Part shown: in pieces, positions 28,737 through 29,593 of the stretch
How positions within the stretch are numbered: the stretch's first letter is position 1
Layout of the letters: every line of letters starts with the position of its first letter
Source: an uncultured delta proteobacterium
GTDB taxonomy: Bacteria; Myxococcota_A; Polyangia; Haliangiales; Haliangiaceae
Length of the DNA stretch: 64,000 nucleotides
Assembly (NCBI GenBank): GCA_963848295.1
Contig: CAWKDB010000002.1
Coordinates: 832,001-896,000 of the forward strand
Reading direction: 5' to 3'
Program-made: the position numbers and the translations under genes
The notes under the pieces: generated by a model
What the model was told of the DNA's origin: nothing
The model's input: only the letters and a program-made list of their open reading frames with translations
The model's database searches: none

Positions 28737-28969
28737 GATCCTCCGAAGTGAGTGGCCGATGGGTAGGAACGTCTCTCTCTCGCCCGTCGCGCCGCACTCG
28801 CGCGGGTCCCGTGACGAGCGCGGGCACTACGTCCCGCACGCGCCGGTCGATTCAACTCCGCGGCGGTCGATCGCACACGTCGGCGCACTCGGCGCTCGGC
28901 GCGGGACAAGCGCGAAGCGGCGCAGGGCGAGAGAGACGTTCCGCCCACCGGCGCGAGCGAAGGAGCATC
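28737..28969 (-). ncRNA. Putative structured leader/ncRNA 1 (long imperfect hairpin) upstream of four-helix-bundle gene 1
   Basis: Nested complementary arms GCCGGTGGG/CCCATCGGC, GGAACGTCTCTCTCGCCC/GGGCGAGAGAGAGACGTTCC, GCGCCGC/GCGGCGC, GTCCCG/CGGGAC, CGAGCGC/GCGCTCG; core homologous to 29403-29555. Confidence 0.6.
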
Positions 28970-28986
28970 GAGTGCTCGAAGGCCGG

Positions 28987-29366
28987 TCGCCGTCGCTGTT
29001 GCTGTTGCCGTTGCCGTTGCCGTGGCCGTCGCCGTTGCCGTCGCCGTTGCCGTTGCCGTTGCCATTGCCGTCGCCGTCGCCGTCGCCGTCGCCGTCGCCG
29101 ACGCCGTCGCCGTCGCCGTCGCCGTTGCCGCCGACGCCGGTGCCGCCGCCGATGCCGATGCCGACGCCGGTGCCGCCGCCGATGCCGATGCCGACGCCGA
29201 TGCCGCTACCGACGCCGATGCCGCTGCCGACGCCGATGCCGCTCCCGCTGCCGACGCCGATGCCGACGCCGATGCCGCTGCCGACGCCGATGCCGATGCC
29301 GATGCCGCTGCCGACGCCGCTGCCGCCGCCGATGCCGACGCCGATGCCGACGCCGATGCCGACGCC
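28987..29366. repeat. Hexamer tandem array B: left half CCGTYG type, right half CCGAYG type, 3-nt register break near 29130
   Basis: Read directly; TTG CCG CCG ACG junction at 29125-29136. Confidence 0.95.
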
Positions 29367-29367
29367 A

Positions 29368-29593
29368 CCTTTCGCCCCTCGCGGCTTCCGATCGCCGGGC
29401 CGTCGCCCTGCGCCGCTTCGCGCCAGCACCGCGCCGAGCGCCGAGACCACCGACGCCTGCGAGGGGCCGCCGCAGAGTTGGGTCGACCGACGCGTGCGGA
29501 GATCTGTGCTCGCGCTCGTCACGGCGCCGGCGCGAGTGCGGCGCGACGGGCGAGACGGCCCCGGCGATCGGTGCGCCGCTCATCCACGAAAGG
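29368..29593 (+). ncRNA. Putative structured leader/ncRNA 2 (long imperfect hairpin) upstream of four-helix-bundle gene 2
   Basis: Nested arms CCTTTCG/CGAAAGG, GCGGC/GCCGC, CCGATCGCCGGGCCGTC/GACGGCCCCGGCGATCGG, GCGCCGC/GCGGCGC, CGAGCGC/GCGCTCG. Confidence 0.6.

Follow-up and report, generated by a model that had tools for sequence, protein, structure and literature searches.

Long imperfect palindromes with a strand-biased fold precede Avd-like four-helix-bundle genes in a multi-copy inserted cassette of a myxobacterium

The window analysed here, the whole stretch of 64,000 nucleotides at positions 832,001 to 896,000 of contig CAWKDB010000002.1 from an uncultured soil bacterium of the Haliangiaceae, contains two divergent genes for small four-helix-bundle proteins, each preceded by a long imperfect palindrome and accompanied by tracts of hexamer repeats. 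Hairpin A denotes copy 1, which lies before gene A on the minus strand, and hairpin B denotes copy 2, which lies before gene B on the plus strand. The template strand is the strand opposite to the mRNA. The features of the locus, in window coordinates, are:

28048 to 28336, unstranded: hexamer tract (GCCGNN)n / (NNCGGC)n on the 3' side of gene A
28410 to 28733, minus strand: gene A, 107-aa four-helix-bundle protein (PF05635, TIGR02436; Avd/S23p-like)
28740 to 28744, minus strand: Shine-Dalgarno (SD) sequence of gene A, GGAGG, which can pair weakly with CTCC (28965-28962)
28755 to 28952, unstranded (plus strand, the template of gene A, predicted better folder): long imperfect palindrome A, consisting of outer stems and core
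28778 to 28930, minus strand: conserved 153-nt core A
28812 to 28900, minus strand: near-invariant anchor of core A, in which GCCGAGCGC (28900-28892) pairs with GCGCTCGTCA (28821-28812)
28912 to 28918, plus (template) strand: mini-hairpin sequence GCGAAGC of hairpin A
28942 / 28775: outer stem A, inner part, GGAACGTCTC / GAGACGTTCC
28952 / 28763: outer stem A, next part, GCCGGTGGG / CCCATCGGC
28965 / 28744: base of stem A, CTCC / GGAG
29006 to 29366, same orientation as both outer tracts: central hexamer tract of about 60 units
29368 to 29593, unstranded (minus strand, the template of gene B, predicted better folder): long imperfect palindrome B, including the SD-covering CCTTTCG/CGAAAGG
29368 / 29587: base of stem B, CCTTTCG / CGAAAGG
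29388 / 29560: outer stem B, CCGATCGCCGGG / CCCGGCGATCGG
29403 to 29555, plus strand: conserved 153-nt core B with the anchor GCCGAGCGC (29433-29441) and GCGCTCGTCA (29512-29521)
29415 to 29421, minus (template) strand: mini-hairpin sequence GCGAAGC of hairpin B
29601 to 29921, plus strand: gene B, 106-aa four-helix-bundle protein
29940 to 29960, plus strand: short 3' hairpin or motif common to B copies, imperfect here
29975 to 30015, unstranded: short degenerate hexamer tract on the 3' side of gene B, ahead of the rubrerythrin gene (30094)

Protein B is 68% identical to protein A over 98 residues. The two score 45.3 and 52.6 bits with Pfam PF05635 (cut-off 33.8) and 45.4 and 48.9 with TIGR02436 (cut-off 24). 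The predicted structure of B (pLDDT 95) best matches 2RLD and 2GSC, followed by 4DWL (Avd) and 8UB7, with TM values of 0.84-0.88. Within the genome, 19/20 A and B genes are intact, and dN/dS is 0.16 over 10 close A copies and 0.125 over 9 intact B copies; judged from these sequences, the cassette proteins are under purifying selection. Besides the role of Avd in diversity-generating retroelements (DGRs), no function of S23p/Avd-like proteins was found in the literature searched.

The two hairpins had been noticed in a sequence-only reading of the window, and most of what it described holds. The cores, 28930-28778 (minus) and 29403-29555 (plus), align without gaps, and a recount gives the 127 identities over 153 nt that it had reported; the outer-stem motifs that it named were all found in place. 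Both copies fold back as claimed, more stably than 200/200 dinucleotide shuffles on both strands, with RNA folding z values of -5.0 and -4.8 on the mRNA strands and of -5.7 and -6.5 on the opposite strands; DNA folding of the template strands gives -4.1 (A) and -5.5 (B). The compensatory change from T-A to C-G between the copies is genuine, and the adjacent pair in copy 2 is an A.C mismatch. The search of Rfam that had been suggested (release 15) returned nothing at the gathering score in the window and nothing at E ≤ 1 in 28600-29700. What that reading had overlooked is the inserted cassette, present in many copies, of which the hairpins form part. The 83% identity of the two cores is paralogy in a dispersed repeat family and not the conservation of two lone leaders.

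The unit of this family consists of a hexamer tract, a hairpin and a four-helix-bundle gene, and the genome holds 24 hairpins at 13 loci, namely 11 head-to-head pairs (10 of them of the A+B type of the window), one single cassette and one decayed copy. All 24 hairpin matches in the genome precede a four-helix-bundle gene or pseudogene. Among the held-out loci, 25/26 full-strength model matches have such a gene after them, oriented as the hairpin is; the remaining one is a solo hairpin on the minus strand of L194 (1501-1727), which is cut in the outer stem and is followed by no gene. In the window, genes A and B diverge across the central tract of ~360 bp, further tracts lie 3' of each gene, and the tract at 28048 to 28336 starts a few bases past the stop codon of the host gene at 27593-28043. 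Tract units have a fixed CGGC, which was partly built into the selection of tracts, and two variable positions. The tracts keep one orientation per locus and often extend up to a few bases from a host stop codon; since 6- and 7-mers are mixed in them, a coding role is ruled out. In relatives, a tract was found upstream of 17/33 units and downstream of 15/33, compared with 3/300 random windows.

Several arrangements depart from the head-to-head pair. At L204, L208, L220 and L222 the cassettes stand tail to tail, their stop codons separated by no more than a short GC hairpin, and in these pairs the tract is at the hairpin end. One hairpin at L093 (2434-2647) serves two divergent four-helix-bundle genes, one per arm. 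A non-coding stretch of ~100 nt at the far end of a B-side tract (G000 C2:1460950-1461040) also occurs 3' of several A genes, and tandem copies of a ~180-bp palindromic repeat follow the single cassette (L113, G000 C10:1111600-1112000). At G000 C10:727193-727324 the B gene, truncated after 44 codons, has lost its tract, and the partner A gene differs by 2 bases from A of the window, which suggests a recent copy or rearrangement. A query of hairpin plus gene gave matches in 34/90 same-genus genomes, some of them over part of the query. The covariance model search of 140 phylum-wide genomes, with 16 candidates scored per genome, gave a match only in the one same-family genome. With regard to viral carriage, no relative was confirmed among 41 candidate stretches.

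For the comparison of hairpins, 82 units were reduced to 53 with the anchor, of which 34 were kept and joined by 5 copies from this genome; the rows dropped had wrong anchors or cut-off 5' arms, belonged to a distant T-shaped type or were near-duplicates. The resulting 39 hairpins gave 24 representatives under 75% identity, and the 33 long ones were aligned. The selection on structure that the sequence-only reading had proposed is borne out in this alignment: 9/18 pairs carry two-sided changes, and there are 52 covariation cells compared with 13.9 in shuffles (0/500 shuffles as high; slid controls 4-14), although these counts, like the strand counts given below, come from related and hence not independent sequences, overstate significance and yield no clean probability. 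The outer stems had been described as replaced but still paired. Own arms indeed score 36.6 on average (minimum 24) compared with 13.3 (maximum 31) for arms swapped in from other hairpins. Unpaired features are kept as well, namely a C.T mismatch in GCCG/CGTC, a neighbouring C.A pair and a bulge of 2-3 nt on the 3' arm. In anchor A the mismatches C.T and C.A of the mRNA strand are G.A and G.T on the template strand. The terminal part of the hairpins measures about 35 or about 70 nt, and on the mRNA strand the hairpins have an unbroken helix of at most 13 bp in the median (range 7-26). In the 3' arm (28821-28801 minus and 29512-29532 plus), the bases that do not vary are spaced like a sigma-54 promoter of the -24/-12 type, in the pattern G.CA...GC. 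The critical G of this pattern is T in 33/39 hairpins, and the other arm supplies GG. A promoter that arises solely upon folding of the strand is a weak lead.

Hairpins of this kind might act in the mRNA. The proposal that they sequester the ribosome-binding site is supported by prediction for copy 2, where the SD is paired with a predicted probability of 1.0 in the presence of the 5' arm and of 0.65 in its absence, and for the family as a whole, in which the SD pairs with the 5' arm in 31/37 predicted folds compared with 16.8 expected when the distal 5' segment is shuffled. It does not hold well for copy 1, where the pairing comprises 4 bp and the SD, paired with a predicted probability of 0.67 in a read-through transcript, reaches 0.92-0.95 even without the 5' arm. 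An SD hidden in read-through transcripts is a known feature of IS10 and IS200. Only 1/39 hairpins (L093) was seen to have an intact mirror gene at its 5' arm; the anti-SD is therefore mostly not the SD of a second gene, and an origin from a mirror gene is ruled out as a general account.

These folds would suit an autoregulatory leader, that is, a hairpin in the 5' UTR that hides the SD until the Avd-like protein or RNase III switches translation, with the dispersal of the copies caused otherwise. The main reason to consider it is that Avd binds an RNA stem-loop through flipped-out bases (10.1101/2023.10.23.563531, in part). The enrichment of SD pairing, the SD and ATG lying inside a perfect stem in several short hairpins (L010, L029, L093), the fixed distance to the start codon and the T-shaped leaders with G.T on the mRNA strand described below agree with such a role. 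However, SD occlusion is absent in 6/37 folds and weak in copy 1 of the window, the conserved mismatches of the mRNA strand are C.U, C.A and C.C and not G.U or G.A, and the template strand is predicted to be the more stable one. We consider a leader of this type rather unlikely, although it is the strongest competitor of the reading favoured below.

The sequence-only reading had left the functional strand in doubt, as several A-C mismatches would be G-U on the other strand. This doubt was justified, and the mismatch spectrum, the folding energy and the mini-hairpin loops point away from the mRNA strand. In duplex alignments scoring Watson-Crick pairs alone, the 24 representatives show on the mRNA strand, with three core columns excluded, 78 pyrimidine-pyrimidine mismatches versus 14 purine-purine ones, together with 34 A.C versus 18 G.T; 21/24 hairpins lean in this direction. 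A held-out set of 18 hairpins, fetched later and left after exclusion of 12/30 genes with short upstream sequence or no anchor, gave 55 pyrimidine-pyrimidine versus 13 purine-purine mismatches, with 16/18 hairpins leaning the same way, and 25 A.C versus 17 G.T. Other gene-adjacent hairpins of the genome are nearly balanced (224 versus 212 upstream and 224 versus 178 downstream of genes), a control that says little about RNA because it shows no G.T excess downstream of genes. Taken alone, A.C versus G.T is weak against this control (Fisher p 0.04-0.09). The pyrimidine mismatches of the mRNA strand imply stable G-containing mismatches on the template strand. In the conserved C.A column the sole variant is T-A (8/33), which is T.G to T-A on the template strand and thus reads as a wobble there. 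The predicted energy is lower on the template strand for 27/39 hairpins folded as RNA and for 32/39 folded as DNA. This strand test, with its held-out set and genome control, is the main new result of our analysis.

The mini-hairpin loops point in the same direction. The sequence GCGN(N)AGC forms an unusually stable DNA mini-hairpin that is much weaker as RNA, and such mini-hairpins occur at the phage G4 origin, at RSF1010 ssiA and at N4 promoters (PMC13037366, in part). It lies on the template strand, 10-12 nt from the anchor, in 17/39 hairpins, with seven different loops and including both copies of the window, and in 9/24 representatives. The held-out set has it at the matching place in 9/18 hairpins, compared with a background of 0.56 per 220 nt anywhere. 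It is absent in 22/39 hairpins and overlaps an invariant helix, and its five tetraloop variants are all GNRA, which is favoured by RNA too. At L073-L094, Polyangiaceae and other myxobacteria carry a T-shaped hairpin and other hexamer tracts before four-helix-bundle genes. Eighteen of these distant leaders, a few of them poorly aligned, have C-GNA-G triloops 25 versus 2 in favour of the template strand and 37 versus 9 pyrimidine mismatches, the same direction as in the window family; in the opposite direction, they have 15 G.T versus 4 A.C and a lower DNA energy on the mRNA strand in 15/18. On the whole, the fold is strand-biased against the mRNA, with the skew of mismatches and loops observed and the greater stability of the template strand predicted. 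The sequence-only reading had offered a cis-regulatory RNA or else a cognate ssDNA or RNA substrate of the protein. The second option fits better than a plain cis-regulatory 5' leader.

A template-strand fold could belong to an RNA whose transcription leads off from the gene and into the tract. This would be the cognate RNA of the protein and act as its guide, as an antitoxin or as the template of a reverse transcriptase in trans. The G.U, G.A and GNRA features of that strand would agree with this, as would the RNA stems with flipped-out bases and GNRA or UNCG loops that Avd binds (10.1101/2023.10.23.563531, in part). The tract units, varying at two fixed positions, resemble the outcome of adenine mutagenesis, but AA is not the dominant tract variant. 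Moreover, the GAA, GGA and GCA triloops are of DNA type, no sigma-70 promoter or terminator was found in 28000-30150, and the three reverse transcriptases above the Pfam cut-off in this genome, which is 85% complete, score best as group II intron proteins. We regard an antisense RNA as improbable.

It is slightly more improbable still that strand plays no role, with the palindrome acting as a double-stranded inverted repeat or cruciform, either as an operator or kept perfect by template switching, and with the anti-SD as the mere mirror image of a second gene in the ancestor. Each of the two strands does fold far more stably than shuffles, a divergent gene at L093 is intact and starts at the 5' arm, and the target hairpins of DGRs form on either strand (PMC3240598, in part). 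However, the mirror gene is found in 1/39 hairpins only, and the mismatches and bulges have been kept rather than corrected and show a strand skew.

Insertion of the cassette is best seen between a response-regulator-like gene and valS. In relatives, valS lies within 1.5 kb of this gene in 27/29 and within 200 bp in 22, and the four-helix gene is present in 0/29; in this genome a 1.8-kb pair, of another subtype than the pair of the window, starts from the stop codon. By this one clean empty site, the cassette behaves as an inserted element. At the site in the window, the gene is likewise present in 0/29 relatives within the 0.5-1.5 kb of sequence available upstream of rubrerythrin; this is not a clean empty counterpart because the left-hand gene was not found there either and its synteny was not seen. 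The tallies at both sites, that of 34/90 genomes and that of the 72 neighbouring ORFs each include one locus or row from the unpublished genome G010, on which by itself no claim depends.

Among these 72 ORFs no recurrent transposase, integrase or reverse transcriptase was found; they include 6 other four-helix genes, 1 Y1 (beside a truncated gene) and 1 DDE transposase. Inspection by eye for the marks of a MITE or IS-derived cassette in 22 flanks, whose junctions are not defined by a near-identical empty allele, revealed neither a terminal inverted repeat nor a target duplication. A and B do not move strictly together, as their distances are uncorrelated (Mantel r -0.01, 9 pairs). Incompatible site pairs in the four-gamete test (197/406 and 189/325) indicate that copies recombine. 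Copies are mosaic and ~4-10% diverged, and the spread may thus be old or have proceeded via gene conversion and horizontal transfer. Elsewhere in the window, two ORFs at 21171-22252 (minus) and 19898-21148 (plus) resemble by eye a split IS630-type transposase in or beside an RHS-like ORF.

The genome also carries a second four-helix-bundle cassette family (G000 C2:797064-797600, C10:3467457-3467985, C2:270990-271525 and others). A terminal inverted repeat of 15 bp delimits it, CTAG follows immediately outside, and mutually inverted hexamer arms surround the gene; its 13 terminal-repeat matches include an ORF-less form of 70 bp at C10:4408271. Ends of group II introns abut this terminal repeat at G000 C2:797050, C10:3467990 and C10:2116755, as if a group II intron targeted the hairpin of the second family.

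Due to the template-strand fold being predicted as the best one, we propose that the hairpins may serve as single-stranded-DNA signals that aid the spread of a transposase-less element. We thus favour, tentatively, a reading in which the hairpins, being the conserved and covarying ends of the repeated cassette, act as an ssDNA signal on the template strand of a mobile element; the protein that the cassette encodes would bind them, and SD occlusion would be a further use. The folded template-strand hairpin would then be a structure-specific signal made of DNA rather than of antisense RNA. Its binding by the protein, which would probably be a pentamer reading unpaired bases in the manner of Avd, would lead to copying to new sites beside stop codons of the host. 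Enzymes of host replication or recombination would move the cassette, helped by recombination between the like-oriented hexamer tracts. In read-through mRNA the palindrome is predicted to hide the SD and would keep the protein low.

Going further, we speculate that the cassette is a minimal autonomous mobile element with an Avd-like protein as its sole product, which would recognise the ssDNA hairpin while host enzymes copy the cassette beside stop codons, laying down or exploiting the hexamer tracts. Such an element is rather unlikely in this full form. If it were true, a general function could be assigned to the orphan S23p/Avd family, and this would hint at where DGRs obtained Avd and their target hairpins. 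Movement of the cassette without a transposase would represent a novel way for bacterial DNA to be mobile and would help to explain the non-coding hexamer satellites of myxobacteria. Genes for S23p/Avd-like four-helix bundles are widespread, and a candidate ligand is now defined beside a conserved, multi-copy inserted gene: a covarying hairpin of 150 nt whose strand is named and which has a bulge and a mismatch that does not vary. In the main texts of the literature searched, with few subscription journals among them, the association of hairpin and cassette is undescribed.

Compared with known systems, the cassette shares single traits with several and fails the defining tests of intervening sequence (IVS), DGR, attC cassette, REP-RAYT and retron. 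Retrons have a reverse transcriptase downstream of a structured element. Here the downstream gene encodes a four-helix-bundle protein, and no retron reverse transcriptase scored best in the genome (85% complete). An IVS of 23S rRNA with an ORF, such as that of Coxiella S23p, is likewise a selfish-looking insert with PF05635 and has a long stem that involves the ribosome-binding region (PMC4990558, in part). In contrast, the stem of the cassette lies ahead of the gene and does not enclose it, the 13 loci are in intergenic places, hexamer tracts are present and the protein is under purifying selection. The absence of an Rfam hit in the window and the flanking protein genes place the cassette outside an rRNA gene. 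Nor is it an IVS-like ORF within terminal inverted repeats, as the palindrome stops at the SD and the flanking tracts are direct, not inverted.

With Avd of DGRs the cassette protein shares the fold (TM 0.84 to 4DWL) at 11% sequence identity. DGRs have a DNA hairpin with a GRNA loop (PMC3240598, in part) and an RNA stem with flipped-out bases that is bound by Avd (10.1101/2023.10.23.563531, in part), and their hairpin of 7-11 bp compares with 150-230 nt in the cassette (PMC3240598, in part). Membership is rejected, given that no DGR reverse transcriptase stands beside any copy among the 72 neighbours and that the reverse transcriptases of the genome (85% complete) resemble those of group II introns. 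With regard to a TR/VR pair differing at adenines, two positions of the tract units vary, C being rare there, and this look at the tracts identified no template repeat (TR). With REP/REPIN-RAYT systems, including CGTC-tagged REPs, the cassette has in common intergenic palindromes near the 3' ends of genes and a CGTC tetramer in the core. REPs have stems of 8-9 bp and a terminal tag, whereas the cassette has the tetramer inside a long stem and a gene per hairpin (PMC3733652, in part), and CGTC-REP identity is rejected on this anatomy. At the nine Y1 transposase loci of the genome, a motif scan found no paired anchor arrangement and there was no profile match.

The attC site of integrons is an ssDNA hairpin of which one strand has more G:T pairs, a purine skew and a GAA loop (PMC5027507, in part). 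The cassette resembles it in having an imperfect palindrome by a promoterless-looking ORF, a sequence that is free but paired, conserved unpaired bases and a variable terminal part, and in that purine-rich unpaired parts, GAA loops and G:T pairs favour one strand; it differs by a longer hairpin and by the lack of arrays (PMC5027507, in part). Membership proper is rejected: RYYYAAC/GTTRRRY boxes occur in 0/39 hairpins, and the best TIGR02249 score for an integron integrase in the genome (85% complete) is 73.8 bits versus a cut-off of 265. Single-strand origins and ssDNA promoters also have GCGN(N)AGC within a longer hairpin on one defined strand (PMC13037366, in part); unlike them, the cassette is chromosomal, with no known single-stranded phase and no linked primase or polymerase. 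In conclusion, we regard the cassette as a new variant of small selfish gene cassettes which, on the favoured reading, would work most like an attC site or a single-strand origin.
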